Of a DNA stretch of 64,000 bases, positions 27,653 through 41,950 are shown one piece after another. The first letter of the stretch is position 1; each line of letters begins with the position of its first letter. Source of the stretch: Neodothiora populina (taxonomy: Eukaryota). The notes under the pieces were generated by a model. That model did not search any database. It was given only the letters and a program-made list of their open reading frames with translations, and was not told the DNA's origin. The stretch is from assembly GCF_041146345.1 (NCBI RefSeq), contig NW_027191419.1:434001-498000 (forward strand). The letters run 5' to 3'. Made by a program: the position numbers and the translations under genes.

Positions 27653-29477
27653 CTACAGCTTCGCGCCCTTGGCCTTCAGGCGCTTCTCCCTGTCTTGATC
27701 CCGAATCAGTCTCCTAAGGATCTTGCCGCTTGGACTCTTGGGCACGATGTCGATGAACTCAATGCCGCCTTTGAGCCACTTGGGCTTCGATTTGTGTTTT
27801 TCCACATGTTTTGCGATTTCGCGAGCGATCACACGGTCGGAATCCTCTAGCCCGACTGATTCGGATTTGACGACGAATGCTTTGGGGACTTCTCCTTCGG
27901 CGTCTGAGGGCACTCCGATCACGACGCAGTCGTTGACTGCTGGGTGCGTTAGCAGGTGCGCTTCTAGTTCCGCGGGCGCTACTTGATGTCCCTGTGCGAG
28001 TTGTCGTTAGTGATTTGTGAAGAAATTGTAAGTCCTCAATGAAGAAGAAACTCACCTTGACCTTGATCAGTTCCTTCAGCCTGTCGACTATGAAAATGTG
28101 CTCATGGCCGGATTTGGGATGCTTCTTTATGATCACTTCGTCGCCTGTCCTCAGGAACCCATCTACGAAGGTTTCTCTCGTTGCTCTTGAGTTGTCCAGA
28201 TAGCCCAGTGTTATCGAGGGACCCTTGACCCACAGCTCGCCAGGCGTGTCATGATCTTCGACGTCCATGCCATCAGGTGTAACCACTCGCGCTACATCGC
28301 CTGGCTGCAAACTGCCGGACGAACCGAAGAAAACATCCTGAGGACTAGTCATGCATGTGACAGTCGCAGACTCCGTCATTCCATAGCCTTGAGTGATGTC
28401 CCACTTTGGAAAGATGGACTGCAGGTCTTCGGCAGTCTCTGACCCCAGGGGCGCCGCGCCTGTGAACACGGCTCTCACACTGGAAAGATCGTACTTGCTC
28501 ATTTTCGTCTTCGATTTCGTCATCTGGATGATGATCGGTGGGACGAGGTACAAGAAATTGATCTTGAACCTCTGGATTGCGTCCAGAAACGTGTGGAAGT
28601 CGAATTTCGGTAAGATCACAACGCCATCGCCTCTGTACGCCGCCAAGTGGGCTATCACAACTAGCCCGTAGATATGGCTCAATGGTAGAAGACCAAGCAC
28701 ATATTCTGTGTAATCGGATTGATTACGAGGATCCTTCAAAGTCTCGCGATACACCGAGTCGAAGGTACGCATCTGAAGCACGTTCGCTATCACGTTTCGA
28801 TGAGAGATCATCACACCTTTGGGCAACCCTGATGTGCCTGAACTGTAGCACAAGAATGCAGTTCTTCGCGCTCCTTCGCCCTTGGTCCAGTTCAGCTCTT
28901 CCAATTTTGGCAGCCTTGCGCCATGTTTGATGAGATCATCGACGGTCTTGTGGGATTTCACAGCATCGCCAGCGTTTTCAAAGTCCGGAGTCACCAAGAG
29001 ATATACTCGTTCTTTTGCGATTCCCGCCTTGCTGGCAGCTTCTAGAGCCAAAGGTAGAAGGGATGCGCAAGTGAACAAGCAAGTCGCCTTCGAACTTCGT
29101 AGCTGGTAGAGAAGCTCTGGTCCCGAATATGCCGCATTGGCTGGCGTTTGGATGCCACCAATGCGATGGGTTGCCCATGCCAGAGTCAAAGTATCAATCG
29201 TGTTGACGCTGAAGAGACCGATGACCTTGTCAAATTCGGTTCCCTCATTTGGGTGAAATCCAAGTTCAGCACTCAATCCCCTCGCTAAGAAGTCGACACG
29301 TTCCTTGACCTCGAGCGCGCTGTACGCCTTGCCCGTGATTCCGCATGTGAACGGGGGGTTCGAGTATCCAAGAGGATAGCGGTCATAGTTCTCATCGAGC
29401 ATAAACCTCTCAACGGATATCGAGTCCGGCGGATCGAACGGTAGTTTGGGCACCCATGACGGCGGATAGAATGGCAT
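27653..29477 (-). CDS. Peroxisomal AMP-binding acyl/aryl-CoA ligase (4-coumarate/phenylacetyl-CoA ligase-like), PTS1 AKL
   Basis: YSSGTSGLPKG AMP-binding motif, QGYGMTE, FLRTGD, DRLKELIKVK|GHQVAPAELE across intron 27992-28055, PKSPSGKILRR, C-terminal -AKL. Confidence 0.92.
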
Positions 29478-29590
29478 CTTTGATGCAGTAACGCTTGTTC
29501 ATAGAACACCGTAGACTTGTGTGGTGTTTGAATGTCGAGAAGAACAATACCGAGTCATCTTCGACTGCTTCCGAAGGAAAATGTGGGTTG

Positions 29591-30981: not shown

Positions 30982-33900
30982 ATGGTGTCACAGAACACGA
31001 GGCAACGATCTAGCAGCATACTTCCGGATTCCGGGCGTCTTGCAGGCAGTGGTATGATGAGCAATACTGCTTCATCTTGTTCTTTGGACTCTGCTAACCC
31101 CTGTTCAGGACGGCAGCTACGCTCTGCTGCTGGCAACGCCACTGCCTCAGTATATCAAAGTTCATCAGTGATGAGCTCACTAATGGATCAGTCTTTCCGC
31201 TCTTGCATCGCGACTCAAGAAAGCGCAGCAAGCTCTGCTCCAACATCCGATCTCTCTGGATTTGACGCTGCAAATGCTTTCACATTTATCCCCACCCCTG
31301 TAGCTCCATATATCGCTCCTGTAGTAACACAGCCTCTTATTCCTCTAATGACTCAGCCTGGTCCATTGCACATGGTACTACCTGATGGACCCGTCGTTAC
31401 TAGAGGCGACTTTTTACTTCGTCGCTCTGCCCGTGCGATCAAGAAACCCATCCCCTTTGATGAAGTCACTCCTAAGGGTCCCACCGATAGCACTAAGACG
31501 AAGGCAGCCTTGAAACGGAAGTCTTTGGCAACGAAGAGTGATGTGCCTGTTCAATCCTCCAAGAAGCGACGCATAGACTCCCCACTACCCGACACTGCTA
31601 TTGCAGCTATGCCAGAGACGAAGCCTGGACCGGGAACGACAACAGTCGATGAAGAGGTCTTGCATAACCGTCCAGTCGACTCCATGCTCAGAAAGAGGCG
31701 AAGCAGACTCGTAACTGGAGTAGCTACTTCCGATGTAATCTCATCCACTAGCACCTTCCATGTAGAGGGACGGTCCCTTGAGAACCAAACACGCCTAACA
31801 AACATCGGCTCTGATACTCAGTCTATGAACTGGCCAATCAGCTCACCAGAGGGAGCATTAATCTCTAATGGTCAAGTCAACGAAAGTCCGGTACCTGACT
31901 TCCCCGTCAATACCGAAGACAACGGGATTGTACATGGCTTCACCGCCGTCACCGAAGTCAACGGGAAAAAACCTCCTGTAAAAATGGATAATATCAGCCA
32001 TGGTCATCCCAGCTTGATTCTTCCACCCACTCAGCCTACACAACCTGTATCGCCCATTCCTATCTATGCAGTTGAGCAACGCGCGGAAATCCCTGAGAAT
32101 CATGAGGGCACAATGACCAATTCCAACCCTATGTCTATCGAATCTGGAAGATCCTACCTTACAGAAGCGCTAAAACCATCGCATGTAGCCATCCTCAGAC
32201 TCAGACCAGAAACACTACAAGATGCAGAAGCGAAACGGCGTGAAAATGAGGTGCTCAGGAGCCTTGCAGAAAGGCTTATGCTGAAGACTTCTGCCGACCA
32301 AAAGCCTGCACCACTGGGTAAACCTATAATCTGGGCATCGGATCGCCAACCACTCTGTGAAACATTGCCATACTACCGCGCTTACCAAGGTGCGTGCTAT
32401 ATGAGTCAAGGACTTGTCCGTAGCATGATGTTCGACGAGAATGGACAAGGTCAGGATTTCATGGATGCAGATGTCATCGTATCCAGAGCGGGAGGTGGCA
32501 TGGCACGAGACAAAGCTGGTACCATGATCCAAGTCAAAAGTCAAGGCGAGAACGCGCAGATTCGATCTATGCGTAACAACATGTTGCATGAGATCCCTAT
32601 CGTTGTCATCTGTGGACAGAAAAACATGGCTTGTCCAAGTAACATGCCACATCGATATTGTGTGCTTGGGTTCTTCAAATTGACCGATATGATTGTCACT
32701 ATGAGTTCCAAAGCGAACCAGAAGATCATTCTGTTCCGCTTCGAGAAACTCAATTCCGATAAAAAGGGATGGTGGAGTCCGACAAATGTCGAACCAATTG
32801 TACCACTTGGGGGACTCGGAAACCCACAAACGCTGACCTGTCCCTGTTGTGGAATCTCACAGGAGCATGTGTATATGACGTGGATGTGTCTCAACCCCGC
32901 TTGCCGGTTTTACTGGAAGACTGTCCGAGGAGACGCACCCAAAGACTTGGACATCGAGTGCTTCCATCCTCAGTGGCTGAAGAAGAGAACGCGCTGGGCA
33001 AACGAGGACGACCCTTTCGACCTACGTCTCTCGGATTTGACATGCCAGGCCAACCTAGACGCCTTGTATCCTCACAGTGTCATACGTGGATTGTGTTGTC
33101 CGAAATGTGGCCAGTGTATATCACGCTACAAATATGAGGGATGGGTGTGTAGTAGCAAAGGACCTGGAGACAAGTGTGACGAAAATGAAAGCAAATGCGA
33201 CTTCAGTCACACGCCGGCGGCAAAGTCGCTACCTTCCTGTTTGATGCGGGATCTGACGAGAGTGATAGGCAGAGGCCAACCTATCTCCTACGATACCGCT
33301 CAAGGTCACATCAAGATGGATCACAAGTACGAGTTCAGCCACCGAATCAACCGCTTCACGCTTCCTGGTCTGGAGGACGAGGTCATAGTGCACATGATCG
33401 CAAACCAGAAAGTCCTTGAAGAGATCCGAGGACCCGATGCGATGCTAGATGCAATGCAGCATGAAGACATAGGTCTCGAACGCAGGACCTTAGGATCATT
33501 TGGTCGAATGTCAGCTTTCTCTGTCAATCATGGTTACCCTTACAAGTTCGTGGCCGCAGTTGAAAGTCGTCCGTTCGAAGGCACATCGTGGGTCATCACA
33601 GAGACACGAACTCAGCTGAACTTTTTTGCTAAGCTGGCTCTGCAAGACCAATTCCCCGACAAAGCCTTCAACGAATTGCTGACTTTTTGCTACCTCGAAG
33701 GACAAAAGATCAAGTACCACGATGATGGTGAGAGTGGACTTGGCCCAACCGTTGCTACCTATTCCTTAGGCGCACCAGCAGAGATGAAGTTCAGGATGAA
33801 GCGCAAGTATTACTGCGGCATCACAATGAAGACAGGAGAGGGCAAAGAAATAGACGAAGATGAAGAGGAGCATGCCGTTGCAGAGGATACCTCCGTGGAG

Positions 33901-34341
33901 ACGGGGACTAAGGGTACGAAAGAGGTCAAACCATCGAAGAGGCTCAGTGGGTTGGTTCCCTATTTCGTAGCTGAAAGGCCACTGCCATACACACTGGATT
34001 TTGACGCTCGGCTCAAAGCGTTTGAATCACTGCAAGGGCTTTCCCGCGAGAAAGTTGATCAAAGATGCCGTGAGCTTCCTCGGGAACTGCATCTGATTGG
34101 CAAGGGAAAGGGGACTGCTCCGCCACAAGCGATCAGCATTCACCTCGCGCATGGCGACAAGATCATCATGCACGGCGAGAAGATCCAAAAGTATTATGAG
34201 CATGAGGTCGAGCCAATGCAGGGCCACGGTGTAAGATTTGCCAACACTTGCAGAGAGATCCTCCCGAACCATCTGCCTCCGGCTATGCGGCCGGAAGTGC
34301 CTCCAGATGAAGGGACCTATGATGGGAGCAACTTGCAATGA
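30982..34341 (+). CDS. AlkB-like 2-oxoglutarate/Fe(II) dioxygenase with an upstream SRA/PUA-like domain and Cys-rich zinc-binding segments
   Basis: Intronless 1119-aa ORF. The C-terminal domain has FNELL..Y..GQKIKYHDDGE (HxD), PTVATYSLG, L.HGDKIIMHG..IQKYYEH (distal His) and RFANTCR. CPCC..C..C and CCPKC..C..C..C clusters. The region PIIWASDRQPLCETLPYYRAYQG...YCVLGFF...FRFEKL resembles SRA. Confidence 0.8.
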   Translation: MVSQNTRQRSSSILPDSGRLAGSGMMSNTASSCSLDSANPCSGRQLRSAAGNATASVYQSSSVMSSLMDQSFRSCIATQESAASSAPTSDLSGFDAANAFTFIPTPVAPYIAPVVTQPLIPLMTQPGPLHMVLPDGPVVTRGDFLLRRSARAIKKPIPFDEVTPKGPTDSTKTKAALKRKSLATKSDVPVQSSKKRRIDSPLPDTAIAAMPETKPGPGTTTVDEEVLHNRPVDSMLRKRRSRLVTGVATSDVISSTSTFHVEGRSLENQTRLTNIGSDTQSMNWPISSPEGALISNGQVNESPVPDFPVNTEDNGIVHGFTAVTEVNGKKPPVKMDNISHGHPSLILPPTQPTQPVSPIPIYAVEQRAEIPENHEGTMTNSNPMSIESGRSYLTEALKPSHVAILRLRPETLQDAEAKRRENEVLRSLAERLMLKTSADQKPAPLGKPIIWASDRQPLCETLPYYRAYQGACYMSQGLVRSMMFDENGQGQDFMDADVIVSRAGGGMARDKAGTMIQVKSQGENAQIRSMRNNMLHEIPIVVICGQKNMACPSNMPHRYCVLGFFKLTDMIVTMSSKANQKIILFRFEKLNSDKKGWWSPTNVEPIVPLGGLGNPQTLTCPCCGISQEHVYMTWMCLNPACRFYWKTVRGDAPKDLDIECFHPQWLKKRTRWANEDDPFDLRLSDLTCQANLDALYPHSVIRGLCCPKCGQCISRYKYEGWVCSSKGPGDKCDENESKCDFSHTPAAKSLPSCLMRDLTRVIGRGQPISYDTAQGHIKMDHKYEFSHRINRFTLPGLEDEVIVHMIANQKVLEEIRGPDAMLDAMQHEDIGLERRTLGSFGRMSAFSVNHGYPYKFVAAVESRPFEGTSWVITETRTQLNFFAKLALQDQFPDKAFNELLTFCYLEGQKIKYHDDGESGLGPTVATYSLGAPAEMKFRMKRKYYCGITMKTGEGKEIDEDEEEHAVAEDTSVETGTKGTKEVKPSKRLSGLVPYFVAERPLPYTLDFDARLKAFESLQGLSREKVDQRCRELPRELHLIGKGKGTAPPQAISIHLAHGDKIIMHGEKIQKYYEHEVEPMQGHGVRFANTCREILPNHLPPAMRPEVPPDEGTYDGSNLQ

Positions 34342-34947: not shown

Positions 34948-36727
34948 ATGTCCACCAGCAGCAACACCAGACCATCACCGCCGTCAACAGCAACCACATC
35001 CACCCTCCCATCCCCGAACCCGACAAAATCCTTCTGGCACGCCGAGCCCTCGCCTCTACTGCTAGGCCATCGCTCGACGCGAGAACTGCCCAAGAACGCC
35101 GATGTCGTGGTCATCGGAAGTGGTATCACCGGGGCGAGTGCGGCTTGGCATTTACTGAATGACAACGGCAAGCAAGAGGGGAGTGATTGTGGGGAGGGGT
35201 TCGCTGGACTCGATGTTGTTATGCTTGAGGCGAGGGAGGCTTGTTGGGGGGCTACGGGTCGGGTGAGTCCGTTTTCTTCTGGTTTTCGATCTTTATTCTC
35301 CTTTATGTTGCGTGAATGAGTGGCGAATGGTTTGGCGGAGTCAATGGTCTATCGATTCGGTTTCCATGGAAAGAGGTACTAGGCATATATACCTGGATAG
35401 CCATCTCTCCTGTGTGTCTTGAGGGAGGCTTTCGTGATACATGATCTCGAAGTCATCGCGTTTTCGTTTGATGATACTCGAAACCCAGCAAGCACTATGA
35501 GTAATTGATAGTGCAATACTGACAGCAAGTCAGAACGGCGGCCACTGCCAACCCATCATCTACCAACATGCCCAAGACCCAAGCATCGGACACTTTGAAC
35601 TAGCAAACCTCGAAGCCATCAAGTCCCTATGTCAGAAGCTAAACATCGACTGCGAACTCCACGTACAGCCTGGTGTGCGAGCTTTGTACTCTCAAGCGGA
35701 CGTCGACGCAGCCGCAGCCTCCCTCGAGTCTCTCGAGCGTCTCGATGCCGGACTGGCCAAGCACGCTCGTCTCGTGACTGATGCCAGCGAGCTTCAAGAC
35801 CTACGCATCCCCACCGCGACGGGCGCAATCGTCTCAGACACAGCTGCCAGACTCTGGCCGTATAAGTTCGTGGCGCACATCCTCGAAACACTACTGACGT
35901 CGCCCACCCTTCCCGGCGGCGGTGCATTCAATCTCCAAACCCACACGCCCGCGACATCCATCGACCCATCTCCTTCCACCCCACAATCATGGATCATCAC
36001 GACCCCCCGCGGAACAATCACCGCAAAGAAAGTAATCCTCGCCACAAACGCCTACACCTCCTACCTGCTACGCGACTACTCCGACCTAATCGTGCCCGTA
36101 CGAGGGCAAATGTCCTCCCTGCTCCCCCCACCGTCTCTATCTGGTCCAGCAAACCGCACCAAAACCTCCTTCGGCTTCCTCGGCCCAGCCCAAGACGACT
36201 ACCTAATCCAGCGCGACTCTCGACCCCGAGGCGGCGGCAGCGAACAGCTCCTATACGGCGGCGGGCGCAGCCAAGGCTTCAGCATGGGAGTATCAGACGA
36301 CAGCGCCATCGGGGCCGAGACAGCGGTCTATCTACGCACCGCACTCAATACTCTCCTTGGACTGGGCGGCGACAGCAAAGAGGAAATGACAGCCACGCAC
36401 GAGTGGACTGGCATCATGGGCTTTAGCCGCGACGACAAACCCTTCGTCGGACCGCTTCCGCATCGAGACGGGTTATTTCTCTCCGCGGGGTATACGGGGC
36501 ATGGAATGCCGAATGCGTGGTTGTGCGGGCGCGCGGTCGCGGGTATGGTGCTGGGGGTGTTGAGTGGTGGGAAGAGTACGGAGGGTGTCGTCGCTGATGC
36601 TGTAAGGGACGGGGGATTGCCGAGGGCGTATCTGCCGCATGAGGAGAGGGTGGCCGGTGCGAGGCTGGCGGATACGGTTGAGGTGCAGGATCGGTTGTGT
36701 GGTTATAAGGCTGAGTTCATGGAGTGA
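34948..36727 (+). CDS. FAD-dependent oxidoreductase (DAO/glycine oxidase/PuuB-like family)
   Basis: DVVVIGSGITG Rossmann motif; EAREACWGATGR|NGGH across intron 35263-35533; VILATNAYT, IVPVRGQ, WTGIMGFSRD.KPFVG, AGYTGHGM. Confidence 0.9.
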
Positions 36728-36996: not shown

Positions 36997-38505
36997 TCAA
37001 GGAGCAGCAAAAACAAGCGAAACGCCATCGTCGCCAGCAGTGACGATAGCTCTACCACCGCCTCCCTGCACGAATCCCAGGACGCCACCGCCCTCGCCTC
37101 CTCCGCGATGACCCTTCCACTCGCCCGCGAGCCCCTGGTTCGCAGCCGCAGTGCCACCGCGCGCGTCCCATCGTCGAACAACGCCGTCGTTGCCACACGT
37201 CGTGAGCAGATGCGCCTTGTCGCCTCCGTGCACAAACTCGACTTTAATCACGGCTTCCTCCTCGTGGGCCTCCTTGATGTGTCGTCTGACGGCGAAGTTG
37301 TGCGCGGCGTCGAACATGGCGATGCTGCCGTCGACGCTGCCGGCGGCGAGATAAGCCAGCGGCGGCTGCGAGAAGGCCAGCGTCTCGATGCCGTCGGATT
37401 GCGCTTGCAGACTGGCTAGGATGACGCCTGCTTGGCCTGATGCCGCGCTCGAATGTCCGCCTTTGGGTCCGCCGGCCTGTTTGCCGCCTGCGGCTTTGTT
37501 GCGGGCGCCGCCGCCCTTGGCGCCCGATGTCACGGATGCTTGGGGGATGCTGAGACGTGGGAGACCGACGATTCGGATCTGGCCTTCTGCTCCGCCCACG
37601 GCGACGATGGCACCGCCTGGGGAAATGGCAACGCTGTAGAGTCCGCCGTCTACGAAGAAACGCTCGTCGGCTTCGGTCAGGCCCACGACGGCTTGGCCGC
37701 CTTGTGCGTTGGTCAGGCCGGCGGCGGCGGCGTCGCCGAATGCGTCCCAGACGTACAGACTGGCGTCCTCCGACACGGTCGCGAGCAGCTTGCCGTCGGG
37801 AGACCAGGTGCCGGCTGTGCATGCGCCTTGGTGTAGATAGAAGGCTTGCACGACATCCAGGGTGCCGTCCCGAGCGTTGATTGTGTAGACCCAGACACTG
37901 CCGTCGTTGGCGCCCAGGGCGAATGTGTTGGGGTGTTCCGGGTTGGGGCAAGGAGACAGCCAGTTGATCTCCTCGACTTCCTGTGCGCTTGCGGTGACGG
38001 GGACACTGGTGCCCTGAGGATGAGCCGGTGTCTTGTAGGCATTGACTCTGCCCTCCAGACCACCAGTGACGACAAACTCTCCGGCAGGTACGGTAAAGAT
38101 GATGGCGTTGATGGAATCGGTGTGGTTCTCGAGCTTCGCGACAGGCTCCAAGCTCTTTCGCTCGACGGGCTGCGGGTCGCTCTCGTACGAAGCTGGCAGA
38201 ACAGGCCCCTGCGGCGGCGTGGAGTCCCAGATGTATCCCACGTCGTCGCCGCCGCCGGTTGCGACAAGAGCGGGGTTGGTGGGGTGCTGCGCGATGCAGA
38301 AAATGCTGTCCTTGTGTGCATCAAAGTGTGCGACGCTGTCGTTCTGCAGCGCAAACTCCTCCAGGATGCCGTCGTCGTCGTCAAAGTCCATGGGCATGTC
38401 CTCGTCGTCGGGGATCTCCTCTCCAATCTCGTCGGGGTTCAGGTATTCATCGGCCTCCTCGTCCTGCATGTCGTCGCCCTCGTCGTGGGGCTGGTGTGCA
38501 GACAT
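36997..38505 (-). CDS. SQT1: WD40 ribosome assembly factor Sqt1 (uL16/Rpl10 chaperone; AAMP homologue)
   Basis: Acidic N-terminus, then NDSVAHFDAHKDSIFCIAQHP..VATGGGDD and several WD repeats, ending IVTAGDDGVSLVF. Confidence 0.88.
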   Translation of the reverse strand: MSAHQPHDEGDDMQDEEADEYLNPDEIGEEIPDDEDMPMDFDDDDGILEEFALQNDSVAHFDAHKDSIFCIAQHPTNPALVATGGGDDVGYIWDSTPPQGPVLPASYESDPQPVERKSLEPVAKLENHTDSINAIIFTVPAGEFVVTGGLEGRVNAYKTPAHPQGTSVPVTASAQEVEEINWLSPCPNPEHPNTFALGANDGSVWVYTINARDGTLDVVQAFYLHQGACTAGTWSPDGKLLATVSEDASLYVWDAFGDAAAAGLTNAQGGQAVVGLTEADERFFVDGGLYSVAISPGGAIVAVGGAEGQIRIVGLPRLSIPQASVTSGAKGGGARNKAAGGKQAGGPKGGHSSAASGQAGVILASLQAQSDGIETLAFSQPPLAYLAAGSVDGSIAMFDAAHNFAVRRHIKEAHEEEAVIKVEFVHGGDKAHLLTTCGNDGVVRRWDARGGTAAANQGLAGEWKGHRGGGEGGGVLGFVQGGGGRAIVTAGDDGVSLVFAAP

Positions 38506-39288
38506 TGTGGTTGCTGTGTAGGGTTCTATAGGATTGATTTCCTTTCAGCTCCCGGCAAGATAGTAGAGAATGCTCGGGATATATGACAAATGATTGTCGT
38601 GCTGGGAAAAAAAAGAATATTTCTGGAAAAGTGATTGGAAGCTGATAAATGTCCCATGTTTGTCTTGTTTGCGTCTGACGCCATCGTCGTTTCTGACAGT
38701 TACTGTATAACTAGTTGATTTCTCGAAAAGGGCTGTACGACAGTGTCTTCGAGACGCCCGCTGTATATGGTAATCACGCTTACAAATGCTACTGTACTTG
38801 TACCAACCATGCACAAACTCAGTTTGCATCAAGATCTCGCAGCGTTCCCAACACTCTGCGAGAGGACGGACGAGTGACTTGTGGTCGACGTTGATAATAA
38901 CCATGTAGACGAGGACTATTCGAGGCTCGCAGGAATAGGCAAGAGCCACTCATTTTACGCTTCAAAAGTATCATAAGTAGGCATGCTGTGAGCGCGTTGT
39001 AGTCGTAACTGACCGTCGCTCCCCTTTCGTGCGGGACCGGGTGACCGCAACCCATAAGAACTAAGATGCAACGCCGTGCCAATGCTAGAGTAGGTCATCA
39101 ATGCCACAGACTCTCAAACCCGTTCCAAACCAGTCGCAAAGACCAACATCCCTGATATAATGTGGATGCTCCGTGTTGTGTTATACAATAATCGCACTCT
39201 GATCGAGGCCCCTCGATACACTCACAAGTGCCTGCCAAATGGAGATTCGGCCCATATGCAAGCATGCCCTCCAGGTAATGAGGAGAGC

Positions 39289-41950
39289 TCAATCGTCGTC
39301 CACGTCATCATCCTCGGAGTCATCGAGTGACTCCATTGCTTCCTTGATATACTGGGCAGCCTGTGCACGTCAAGTCAGCAAGATTCCACATCCGATGTTT
39401 CATCAATACAACATACCTTCGGGTCAAGGTTCAGAGCCGTGGTGTAGGCTCTGACACTGGCCGCGCGATTGCCCAGTCCCTTATAGCACTTGCCCAATAG
39501 GAACCAGACGTTCGCTTCCTCGGCTGCCAGGTTCTTCAGCGCTTCTAGCTGCACCAACGCGTCTTCGTAGAGCCTCAAGTTCAGAAGCACTCTTGCCTTC
39601 TTGAAATGCGCGAGCGAAGAGTCAGGTGCCAGGGTCAAGGCATGCGTGTATTGTGTGAGGGCTGCTTTGGGATGGCGAAGCTTTTCAAGAATCTGATGGT
39701 GACCGTCAGCAATCGAAGCTTTCTGCTCAATGGAGAGTGTGACTTACCACGCCAATACAAACAGCCAATACAGAATTGCTCGGGTTGATCGAGGCAGCAA
39801 TCCTGTAGTGTCGCTCTGCATCCTCCCACTTGCCCATCCTCTCGTAGCATTTACCAAGACCATACCATGCACCGTACGCTCGTCTCTCGCTGCCGATACC
39901 TTTGCGGAAGGAAGACAGAGCCTCATCGAATTCCTCATTCGTCAGCAACTCATGACCCATGAGCGTCCAGGCATAGCTGAATCCCGAATCGACCTGCGTC
40001 GCCCGCTTGAAGCAGGCGATGGCTTGTTCGTGCTCCCTGTTGAGTGAGAAAGCATTGCCCACAGCACACCACGTCTGCGGCGCATCAAAGTCTACGTCTT
40101 TCAGTGTATGCGCGAGGAAAGCAAGCTGAATGGGCTTCTTGAGCTGCCACAGGACATTCGAGTATACTTCGGCGTCCTCCAGGCGTGTGGGTTGTAGTTT
40201 CATCATCCGGGCGAAACATGACTCGGCCGCAGCATAGTCCGCCGCTTCGTAGTATGCTTTTCCGAGCTGAGCCAACACCCACGGCGTCTCACGCTGGGCG
40301 ACAGGTAGACTCTTGAAAGTCTCGACCGCTGTCGGCACTTCATATCGGCTGAGCGCATAATACGCACCACCTAATGACCGCAATATCGTCAACAACGCAT
40401 CATAAGCTGCGATCTCCTGCATATTCATGGCATCCGCAGATTGCTTCGGCGCAAGGACCGCAGGCGCGGCGCTGTTACGACTGGGGGCACGAGACTCCTT
40501 CTCGTTCGGGTTTGGAGGAATGATTTTACGATTGCCACTAACAACGCGACCGACAGTAGATGTGCCTCTACCCTTGGCACCGGTCGCTCTTGCCTTTTTC
40601 GCTTCGTCTCTTTTGTTGTTGTTCAGTGTTGACGGTGCCTCCGTCGTGGATCGAGTAGCGTTGGTCTTGGAACCTGTGATCTGGCTGAACAGGCGATTAC
40701 TTCTGCGTGGTTGCGAGGTGGTCGGATCCGGTTCCGAGGTGATGGTGGACTGCGATGCATGTCCGGATATTGTTCTCTTATGATTGGTCTGTGTGCGCTT
40801 CCCAGGACCTTCATCGTTGTCTGTACTTTCTGACCGCAGATGACTTCTGAGCTGTGTTGTCCGCGCTCGAGGTGCGTCCTTGGAAGCATCCAGGCCCAGC
40901 CTTTGCAGCGTCGACCGAGCCGTTCGTCGCTGAGGCGCAGTTGGAGCCTCTTCTTGCGCCGGCGCATGAGCAGCCTGTCCACCATCCATGTCAATATCAT
41001 CGTCTTCGGCAGCTGGACCGTTCGCTGTTGAGGTCTCCCATGTCAGGTTAGTGGCCTTGAGACCATTTCCGAACAGAGCTTTGCTTTTGATGCGTGGCAG
41101 AAGAAAACTAGTTGGGTGTAATGAATCGCCGTCGTGTTTCGCAGTCGTGCCGAACGGATCATTGCTTGGGGTCAGCACGCCTGCTTGAGCAGTGCTCGCT
41201 TGCACGAACTGCTCATTAGCTCTCGCTGCGTCTACAACAGAGACATTGGGTGCTCCGTAGATGCTGTTTTTCATGTCGGGCGAGAGCCTGAAGGATTTGC
41301 TTATGTCCATGTCGGCACCTGTGATAGCGTCAGTAAACTGATCGATGTCGTGCAAAGGGCAGGCGGCGAAGGTATACCGATGTCACAGAGCGCCTGGAAG
41401 GCCTCCCATGCAAAAGGACTGGCTCTGTGTGCTTCTATATAACAATCACCAGCACGTCTGGCGTCGCCGTGACCGCGCCACAAGTGTCCTAGTAGATTAT
41501 TCACCGCAGCAGCATCTGGAATATGCCGTCTCGAGGGTTCACTGTTCTTGGCTGCGGTTGGGTTTCAGTCAGCGGGAGGAAGTAGATAGCAAAAATAGAA
41601 CGGAAACACCAACCCCAGTAGTTGCGACCGATCCACAAGGGACGAGACTTTTCCAGAGCGCAGATTCCCTCGGTGTGTCTGCCGAGATCGTGACAGGCCA
41701 GAGCAAAAACATAAGCGCATCCAAGATGTCTGCCATTTGCGCCATGCTTGTGCGCGAAATCAAAAGCGGCCTTTGAGCGGCGTAGTCTGTGATAGGTGAG
41801 TGCCAAAAGATGGCTTGTGTCCGGATTCCGCGGTTCCATGGCGTGCAGACGGCCAGCTATGAAGTTCGCATTCTCGAGTGCCTCGTTGTCCAGATGGTAG
41901 TATACAAGCTGCTGCAATTGAGACACAGCGAAAGTCGATGTCGGCGACAT
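39289..41950 (-). CDS. CDC27: Anaphase-promoting complex subunit 3 (Cdc27/BimA/Nuc2), TPR protein
   Basis: N-terminus QLQQLVYYHLDNEALENANFIAGRLHA; disordered linker; TPRs ETPWVLAQLGKAYYE, EVYSNVLWQLK, PQTWCAVGNAFSLNREHEQAIACFKRATQ, YAWTLMGHE, YGAWYGLG. Four GT-AG introns near 41540-41600, 41320-41377, 39693-39747 and 39361-39416. Confidence 0.93.

Follow-up and report, generated by a model that had tools for sequence, protein, structure and literature searches.

Architecture of the gene

The window analysed here, a 64,000-nucleotide stretch of the Neodothiora populina genome, contains a forward-strand gene that joins a divergent SRA domain to an AlkB-family Fe(II)/2OG dioxygenase domain. The first-pass annotation had placed this gene at 32300–34341; its actual start lies at 30982. 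The outline of the gene is as follows.

30982–34341, + strand: whole gene; one open frame of 1119 codons, 1100 amino acids with the predicted intron removed
31052–31108, + strand: predicted 57-nt in-frame intron (GTATGA...CTAAC...CAG), from sequence and matching the 19-residue gap in the annotated protein
30982–32298, + strand: low-complexity, unconserved N-terminal region (residues 1–439); homologue alignments begin at about residue 440

A protein search returned NCBI AAFC00_000128 [Neodothiora populina] (1100 amino acids), to which residues 440–1119 are 100% identical. This annotation is 19 residues shorter than the open frame, a difference that the predicted GT..CTAAC..AG intron would account for. 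The one sequencing run mapped here covered 255 bases and is probably DNA, so it bears on neither expression nor the intron. The N-terminal part carries the basic clusters KRK (31513), KKRR (31561) and RKRR (31690), which are candidate NLSs. The adjacent genes (an AMP-binding enzyme, an FAD oxidoreductase, a WD40 and a TPR protein) were judged unrelated to the SRA-AlkB gene.

Conservation was assessed by column counts in alignment A1 (n = 75), which consists of the core from the window plus 74 of 99 homology-search matches; a second, class-wide alignment (A4) holds 12 sequences. Modelled whole, the 679-residue core gave a pTM of 0.84.

A divergent SRA domain with a remodelled base pocket

32320–32793, + strand: divergent SRA (SAD/YDG) domain, residues ~447–604 (structure model with pLDDT 92.4; fold and profile matches)
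32386–32394, + strand: thumb loop Q469-G470-A471, read as SUVH5 Gln392-Ser393-Gly394 (a motif reading, with the register set by eye outside the printed alignments)
32434–32487, + strand: remodelled base pocket comprising D485, position 491, D492 and S501/R502 (HMMER alignments to 3q0b and column counts)

The SRA domain had previously been called from pattern recognition, a call that fold comparison of the model upholds: TagI (Z 13.5), mouse UHRF1 (13.1), KYP (12.8) and SUVH5 (12.6; rmsd 2.2 over 132) are the closest folds among the matches listed, all of them DNA binders. YTH, EVE, ASCH and PUA proteins do not appear in the best 50 fold matches of the N-half model, a limited list. The region also gives a profile match to SUVH5 (E 1.7e-5). 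The Pfam SAD_SRA profile covers residues 468–590 at E 0.11, under its curated cut-off, and is likewise under the cut-off in all 45 relatives tested (10 of which have a match at E<0.1). The SRA call stands despite this sub-threshold match, because structure comparison confirms it.

Resemblance to the SRA domains of SUVH4/5/6, UHRF1 and TagI lies in the fold (Z 10.8–13.5), a Gln-Ser-Gly motif read as the thumb and, in most classes, the acid at the Asp418 position (SUVH5 pocket and thumb residues as assigned in PMC4740795). The thumb Gln occurs in 47/75 sequences of A1 and in 12/12 of A4, with Q-S-G as the family consensus. The base pocket is different: the positions of the two SUVH5 tyrosines, Tyr416 and Tyr428, are non-aromatic in the fungal family, and D485, R491 and R502 are conserved instead. 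By sequence register, the six commonest residues at the Tyr416 position (490; 63/75 of A1) are all non-aromatic, and the Tyr428 position (501) holds A, T, S, C, G or V in 73/75; by the same register, neither position is F, Y or W in any of the 12 sequences of A4. In the N. populina protein, S501 and R502 occupy the Tyr428/Thr429 positions. D485 is kept in 72/75 sequences (A1), while position 491 is Arg in 73/75 (A1) but Gln in N. populina.

D492 aligns with SUVH5 Asp418, the acid that reads the Watson-Crick edge. This position is D or E in 73/75 sequences of A1, but in only 4/12 of the class-wide set. It is Ser or Ala in all six Eurotiomycete proteins aligned in A4, in which the catalytic residues are retained, and the acid is also lost in some Lecanoromycetes. 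Judged by these aligned residues, the SRA domain is not a canonical 5mC reader, since both base-stacking tyrosines are absent and the cytosine-reading Asp is gone in Eurotiomycetes, while the putative thumb Gln stays.

Two conserved cysteine clusters

32839–32904, + strand: Cys cluster 1, C620-x2-C623...C636-x4-C641 (each Cys in 75/75 of A1)
33097–33198, + strand: Cys cluster 2, C706, C709, C712, C723 and C739 (72–74 of 75 in A1)

Two cysteine clusters had been reported between the SRA and AlkB domains. Both are present (32839–32904 and 33094–33198) and conserved, but two of the cysteines in this region, C705 and C732, lack family conservation. Within cluster 2, C706, C709 and C739 are each found in 74 of the 75 sequences of A1, C723 in 73 and C712 in 72. 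Each cluster probably forms a Zn site; for cluster 2, one relative gives a weak zinc-ribbon match (E 0.0028). Weak Zn2Cys6 matches lie upstream in two of 45 relatives scanned (E 0.007 and 0.031).

An ALKBH2/3-like active site with residues of its own

33289–34266, + strand: AlkB-family Fe(II)/2OG dioxygenase domain and lid, residues ~770–1095 (fold and profile matches)
33526–33549, + strand: lid motif N849-x-G-x-P-Y854-K-F856 (column counts)
33670–33693, + strand: strand N897-E898-x-L900-x-F902-x-Y904 (profile alignments and column counts)
33718–33732, + strand: H913-D914-D915-G-E917, Fe ligands plus an acid equivalent to the ALKBH3 HSDDE Glu and to ALKBH2 Glu175
33802–34125, + strand: lineage-specific insertion in the AlkB barrel, an acidic loop and two helices (split BLAST matches; low pLDDT at model residues 529–546)
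34201–34254, + strand: distal Fe ligand H1074 and R1085-F-A-x-T-x-R1091, with Ala where ALKBH3 has Asn

Pfam PF13532 matches residues 848–1081 (E 3e-14; 54 bits against a cut-off of 31.2) and exceeds its cut-off in 44 of 45 relatives. Fold comparison of the AlkB domain gave Z 18.5 for ALKBH3 and 18.0 for ALKBH2. When ranked against 48,161 representatives, the domain matched ALKBH3 best (Z 18.0), followed by ALKBH2 (16.7), FTO (15.8), AlkB (14.2) and ALKBH5 (12.6), with NgTET1 (11.7), NMAD-1 (11.3), TET2 (10.4) and CcTet (10.0) lower. ALKBH3 was also the top profile match in repeated profile searches (E 3e-8 in one of them). Placement in the AlkBH3 clade derives from these nearest fold and profile matches. 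The TET/JBP enzymes (NgTET1, TET2, CcTet) and the 6mA/m6A erasers (ALKBH5, NMAD-1, Mucor Dmt1) share the 2OG-Fe(II) double-stranded beta-helix and act on nucleic-acid bases, but with Z 10–12.6, against 16.7–18 for ALKBH2/3, they belong to a different branch.

The Fe site is intact, and its motifs lie where the first-pass annotation had put them: H-D-D at 33718–33726, H at 34201 and R-x5-R at 34234–34254, as do the N-terminal KRK and KKRR. That these are more than chance patterns is indicated by their near-invariance in A1. H913 and E917 are found in 75/75 sequences and D915 in 74/75 (one Glu), while H1074, R1085 and R1091 are each found in 71/75 (three gapped, one mismatch); overall, H-x-D...H, Y904, R1085, T1089 and R1091 are retained in 71–75 of 75. 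In the alignment, E917 falls on the Glu of the ALKBH3 motif HSDDE, which was mutated to Cys to obtain the cross-linked active site of structure 8jnk. In ALKBH2 the equivalent residue, E175, is a proposed contact to the exocyclic amine of 1mA/3mC, and no rate is listed for E175A (PMC6582317, PMC12295762).

The fungal protein shares HxDxE, R-x5-R, the distal His and the Tyr of the strand with human ALKBH3/ALKBH2. The differences are considerable: identity is ~20%, two Asn are replaced, E898 is a new invariant, and the fungal protein adds the large barrel insertion, the SRA domain, the Zn clusters and a long N-terminus. A 2OG site typically has two Asn, one in the N-x-Y strand and one in R-x-N-x-T-x-R. 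In A1, Asn is found at position 902 in 0/75 sequences (Phe, Leu, Ile or Val are found there, against Asn in ALKBH3) and at position 1087 in 0/72 sequences with a residue there. E898 is invariant and family-specific, with Ser as its ALKBH3 counterpart. In the lid, N849, G851, Y854 and K855 are each present in 74/75 sequences, as is F or Y at 856 (A1); we take Y854/F856 to be the probable equivalents of ALKBH2 Tyr122/Phe124, in a register set outside the tool alignments. The replacement of two Asn by F902 and A1087, together with the invariant E898, N849 and K855, suggests that the family has a substrate of its own. The barrel insertion is absent from Leotio-, Sordario- and Pezizomycete members.

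Distribution and earlier descriptions

Relatives of the SRA-AlkB gene occur across filamentous ascomycetes, and the architecture is common in moulds; the Aspergilli retain it. All organism names among the relatives returned are fungal, and the Atlas clusters are 100% Eukaryota. Insensitive searches found no relatives among 35 pattern-scan candidates from prokaryotic genomes or 87 from viral contigs, and gave only noise (E>=3) in tblastn against plasmids and phages. A PDB search with the single sequence returned chance matches only (RNase A, antibodies).

The architecture is not new, and the gene adds no new one. Fungal fusions of a divergent SAD(SRA) with an AlkBH3-clade 2OGFeDO, with a predicted substrate only, were described by Iyer, Zhang & Aravind (2016; PMC4738411, citing Iyer et al. 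2009), which bears out the first-pass statement that such fusions had been noted computationally; no architectural difference from them was found in the main text. The modification proposed there is m6A. In line with the first-pass annotation, no demonstrated substrate was found, and no experimental study of the fusion, in a literature search that covered few subscription papers. The relevant passages of a 2026 review (PMC13297926) give just two fungal DNA demethylases as characterised, Dmt1 from Mucor and CcTet from Coprinopsis, and name no reader of 6mA. F. graminearum has three ALKBH2/3-clade genes, among them a 933-aa 'ALKBH2' strongly induced at ascospore formation (PMC10826363); this protein (FGRRES_09872) is, from its size and clade, a candidate orthologue.

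A possible function and its alternatives

The protein had been proposed to be a nuclear reader-eraser of 5mC, 6mA or alkylation damage. Of these three, alkylation-type N-demethylation fits best; a 5mC reader-eraser is unsupported, because the pocket has neither of the 5mC-stacking tyrosines and the catalytic domain sides with ALKBH2/3 rather than TET. We tentatively favour, at a little under an even chance, a nuclear, chromatin-bound enzyme of ALKBH2/3 type that N-demethylates 3mC/1mA in DNA, in which the SRA domain serves as a DNA clamp. ALKBH3 and ALKBH2 as nearest folds, ALKBH3 as top profile match and the invariant E917 all point this way, as do the DNA-binding neighbours of the SRA fold, the confident model of the whole core and the weak Zn2Cys6 matches in two relatives. 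The substrate would be 3-methylcytosine, 1-methyladenine or a related adduct with a free exocyclic amine, from which the ring-N methyl would be removed oxidatively. The proposed sequence of events is (i) targeting to chromatin, presumably by the basic low-complexity N-terminus, (ii) gripping of duplex DNA by the SRA domain, which would insert the thumb Gln but form no tyrosine sandwich on 5mC, (iii) placement of the flipped base between H913 and the lid residues Y854/F856, its amine held by E917 as in ALKBH2, and (iv) hydroxylation of the methyl group by Fe(IV)=O and its release as formaldehyde. The last step would follow established AlkB chemistry. In the model, the SRA domain appears braced to the catalytic domain by the two Zn clusters, as one compact unit.

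A plain ALKBH2/3 site is at odds with F902 and A1087 in place of Asn, and with the extra invariants E898, N849 and K855; moreover, a conserved rigid SRA domain and two Zn sites exceed the needs of generic repair, which may be covered by other genes, given the three ALKBH2/3-clade genes of F. graminearum. The housekeeping repair enzyme is probably another protein, and this one a specialised paralogue. It may, speculatively, remove the 3mC that cytosine methyltransferases produce off target: 3mC is a side product of DNMTs, and these enzymes are tracked by ALKB2, weakly in fungi (PMC9246332). Coupling to DNA methyltransferases is disfavoured, however, by the Aspergilli: they keep the gene, and yet no methylation is detectable in at least one of them, A. 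clavatus.

The substrate cannot be read off the fold ranking, since FTO, third in it, acts on m6A. This proximity, an SRA pocket without 5mC features and a 6mA writer reported from Botrytis are consistent with the proposal of Iyer et al. (PMC4738411) that the SRA recognises, and the AlkB domain removes, N6-methyladenine in DNA or RNA. We nevertheless consider it unlikely: E917 matches the Glu that binds the free, unmethylated exocyclic amine of 1mA/3mC in ALKBH2, which disfavours 6mA, and our residue-level reading favours 3mC/1mA instead. In addition, the altered pocket positions offer no aromatic cage, ALKBH5, NMAD-1, ALKBH1 and CcTet lie 4–8 Z units under ALKBH3, and Dikarya have little more 6mA than background. 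E917 is also compatible with 5mC, as human ALKBH2/3 oxidise it in vitro (PMC6582317) and its N4 amine lies near the same acids. An oxidase converting 5mC in SRA-bound methylated DNA to 5hmC/5fC/5caC, a TET-like role in TET-less fungi, would also suit the true SRA fold, the apparently retained thumb and the D/E at the Asp418 position (73/75, A1). It too is improbable, in view of the two lost stacking tyrosines, the change of Asp to Ser/Ala in 6/6 Eurotiomycete proteins while catalytic residues stay, and the low rank of the TETs.

The invariants of pocket and catalytic strand (D485, R491, R502, N849, K855, E898) could instead reflect an undescribed modification, or an oxidation that is added rather than erased, with a possible place in the sexual cycle or in genome defence directed at repeats. 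The ascospore-stage induction in F. graminearum (PMC10826363) would agree with this, but the orthology is putative, and m6A-factor knockouts in the same study have normal perithecia and ascospores, although whether this gene was among them is not stated there. The Fe ligands and E917 are, besides, those of an ordinary ALKBH2/3, and we regard this reading as unlikely. Its boldest form, a Pezizomycotina-wide sexual-stage DNA-modifying enzyme whose SRA pocket and active site were rebuilt for an undescribed base modification, such as a RID/DIM-2 product on repeats, is very unlikely. Single-stranded nucleic acid and RNA are substrates of ALKBH3. As this enzyme is the single best match in both sequence and fold, the fungal protein might be an RNA m1A/m3C demethylase whose SRA domain has been recruited to bind RNA in the manner of a PUA domain; against this stand the DNA-binding SRA domains as nearest N-terminal folds, the apparently retained thumb Gln and the Zn2Cys6-like motifs in some relatives, which leave it distinctly unlikely. 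Least probable is a catalytically dead scaffold, or an enzyme with a different co-substrate: loss of both Asn from the 2OG site would fit, but H-x-D...H, Y904, R1085, T1089 and R1091 are kept in 71–75 of the 75 sequences of A1.

Significance

Our preferred reading, an N-demethylase of 3mC/1mA, departs from the published m6A guess. What is added here is this prediction, the view of the SRA domain as other than a canonical 5mC reader, and a choice of residues for testing (E917, E898, Q469, D485 and R502). A conserved and apparently unassayed pairing of reader fold and dioxygenase across filamentous ascomycetes makes the substrate worth one biochemical experiment. If the enzyme carries out only 3mC/1mA repair, it would be a modest extension of ALKBH2/3 biology. 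Were the undescribed-modification reading true in its boldest form, the enzyme would carry out a chemical step so far missing from repeat-induced point mutation, or would be the first eraser dedicated to a DNA mark in filamentous ascomycetes.

The fusion gene and its neighbours

The SRA-AlkB fusion is encoded by a single open frame of 1119 codons, of which the feature described in the first-pass annotation is the 3' part; all of the motifs named there lie where it had placed them. Residues 440–1119 are 100% identical to AAFC00_000128 (NCBI, Neodothiora populina), a protein 19 residues shorter than the frame, a shortfall that fits a predicted in-frame intron. The four neighbouring genes are ordinary, housekeeping-type and unrelated.

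27653–29498, minus strand: AMP-binding enzyme
30982–34341, plus strand: SRA-AlkB fusion, open frame
31052–31108, plus strand: predicted intron, 57 nt, in-frame (GTATGA, CTAAC and CAG signals)
34948–36727, plus strand: DAO-family FAD oxidoreductase
36997–38544, minus strand: WD40 protein
39375–41382, minus strand: TPR/ANAPC3 protein

The unconserved N-terminus carries an R-R-S-x-R-x-x-K-x-P-x-x-F motif (window 31420–31458, plus strand), which we take to be reminiscent of arginine-anchor chromatin-binding motifs; similar motifs occur in relatives P0011, P0060 and P0161.

Family and distribution

Ninety-nine proteins match the core (residues ~440–1119) at E≤0.001, and the homologue alignments begin at residue ~440. 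The main alignment, A1, combines the window core with 74 of these 99 (five partial proteins, the identical record and a further 19 were excluded) and is skewed to Dothideomycetes. Its profile matches 2541 representatives at E≤0.001, of which 809 reach E≤1e-30; the weaker ones may in part be other AlkB proteins or low-complexity hits. By class labels that we assigned from organism names, the matches include Dothideo-, Leotio-, Sordario- (mainly Xylariales), Eurotio- (Aspergillus, Penicillium, Thermoascus), Lecanoro-, Pezizo- and Orbiliomycetes. Two ESM Atlas clusters resembling the core or its N-half are possibly distant members or fragments: one from Ascomycota (186 aa, score 0.90) and one, a lead only, from Basidiomycota (1111 aa, without Pfam, score 0.91).

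The predicted Elsinoe proteins P0011 and P0015 extend into an eIF5A-like C-terminus, presumably Hex1-type, which is probably a gene-model fusion with a neighbouring gene. Some relatives from Pezizomycetes, Leotiomycetes and lichens (P0086, P0089, P0095, P0161) show Zn2Cys6-like Cys patterns ahead of the SRA; Pfam Zn_clus matches to P0161 and P0095 are sub-threshold.

The first-pass annotation stated that such fungal fusions had been noted computationally, and this is borne out by the available text of Iyer, Zhang and Aravind (PMC4738411), which describes several fungi in which a divergent SAD(SRA) and an AlkB domain are fused, and assigns the SAD/SRA fusions to the AlkBH3 clade. Our literature search found no assay of an SRA-AlkB fusion; the accessible part of a 2026 review (PMC13297926) lists no characterised demethylases from fungi other than Dmt1 and CcTet.

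An AlkB domain nearest to ALKBH3

The AlkB domain matches Pfam PF13532 (E 3e-14). When five alignment profiles were searched against the PDB, ALKBH3 was the top match for A1 (E 3e-5), A3 (1e-7) and the 12-protein, class-wide A4 (3e-8), and second for A5; it was not among the matches of the N-terminal alignment A6. The model of the 679-residue core (pLDDT 88.9, pTM 0.84) suggests one compact unit. Ranked against 48,161 representative chains, its AlkB domain is closest to ALKBH3 (Z 18.0, rmsd 2.5, 198 aligned), followed by ALKBH2 (16.7), FTO (15.8), AlkB (14.2), ALKBH1 (14.1/13.4), ALKBH5 (12.6), NgTET1 (11.7), NMAD-1 (11.3), TET2 (10.4) and CcTet (10.0); the comparison with ALKBH2/3 and TET proposed in the first-pass annotation thus favours the former.

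Residues H913, D915, H1074, Y904, R1085, T1089 and R1091 are each kept in 71–75 of the 75 A1 sequences. E917, found in every A1 sequence, is matched in the alignment by the Glu of ALKBH3 HSDDE, the position at which 8jnk, an active-site cross-link structure, carries Cys instead. For its ALKBH2 counterpart, E175, a contact to the exocyclic amine of 1mA/3mC is proposed in the available sections of PMC6582317, while those of PMC12295762 list an E175A rate for neither lesion. Between the SRA and AlkB domains, C620/623/636/641 are invariant and C706/709/712/723/739 are kept in 72–74 of 75 (A1); both clusters probably bind Zn.

An SRA fold with an altered pocket

Pfam SAD_SRA falls below cut-off in the subject protein (E 0.11) and in all 45 relatives scanned (E<0.1 in ten). 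The SRA call, made by pattern recognition, is nonetheless clear from the N-half model (pLDDT 92.4), which matches TagI (Z 13.5), mouse UHRF1 (13.1), KYP (12.8) and SUVH5 (12.6; rmsd 2.2 over 132); unrelated folds reach at most 4.1 among the matches listed, and Foldseek is concordant.

According to the available part of PMC4740795, SUVH5 Tyr416 and Tyr428 sandwich the base, Asp418 reads it and Gln392 fills the duplex. In HMMER alignments to the SUVH5 structure 3q0b, Asp418 corresponds to D492, Tyr416 to position 490 and Tyr428 to S501 or an adjacent gap. At position 501, 73/75 sequences of A1 have a small, non-aromatic residue, and at 490 none of the six most frequent residues (63/75) is aromatic, leaving an SRA fold that, as aligned, is without the canonical 5mC sandwich; Y/F493 (57/75) or F484 could stand in for the missing tyrosines. 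An acid (D/E) stands at position 492 in 73/75 sequences of A1, but all six Eurotiomycete proteins of A4 have Ser or Ala there, with an intact set of catalytic residues. The Q-S/G-G thumb motif persists (Gln in 12/12 of A4, register read by eye), and D485 (72/75), R491 (73/75) and R502 (68/75) are new conserved charges. The subject protein has Gln at 491 (window 32452–32454) and, like P0003 and P0004, lacks the W571/E573 pair (window 32692–32700) that at least 90% of the A1 sequences retain, suggesting that the SRA is more eroded in its lineage.

The acid equivalent to Asp418 is gone, with catalysis residues intact, in Eurotiomycete and some lichen-forming members (P0213, P0177, P0173, P0228, P0229, P0198, P0192, P0204). 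The aligned Eurotiomycete proteins are also without the long N-terminus, yet Penicillium P0175 has 926 aa.

Possible substrates

We tentatively favour, at a little below an even chance, N-demethylation of the 3mC/1mA type on DNA, which the SRA thumb would clamp in a probably nuclear protein. 3mC is a by-product of DNMTs, with which ALKB2 co-varies, weakly in fungi (PMC9246332, available sections). Counting against a plain ALKBH2/3 site, the ALKBH2/3 Asn of N-x-Y is Phe/Leu/Ile/Val in the fusion family and that of R-x-N is Ala, while E898, N849 and K855 are family invariants; an undescribed modification is an unlikely substrate, and so, to the same degree, is 6mA, for which the available text of PMC4738411 proposes m6A recognition and demethylation by the SAD/SRA fusions, with reference to the authors' 2009 paper. 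Oxidation of 5mC is a shade less probable again: of the earlier idea of a 5mC reader-eraser, the SRA fold stands, and the canonical 5mC-stacking tyrosines are, by alignment, missing. RNA m1A/m3C seems quite improbable as a substrate beside N-demethylation on DNA, and an inactive protein, or one with another co-substrate, very improbable indeed.

Improbable too is the boldest reading, in which the enzyme would work at the sexual stage on an undescribed DNA mark or in a step of RIP. Available sections of PMC10826363 place three F. graminearum genes near human ALKBH3, and for one of them (933 aa) expression climbs steeply when ascospores form (also PMC6094484, in part); by its size, this gene is a candidate orthologue of the fusion family. 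The Neodothiora gene itself is a real, intact member of an already predicted, apparently unassayed family.
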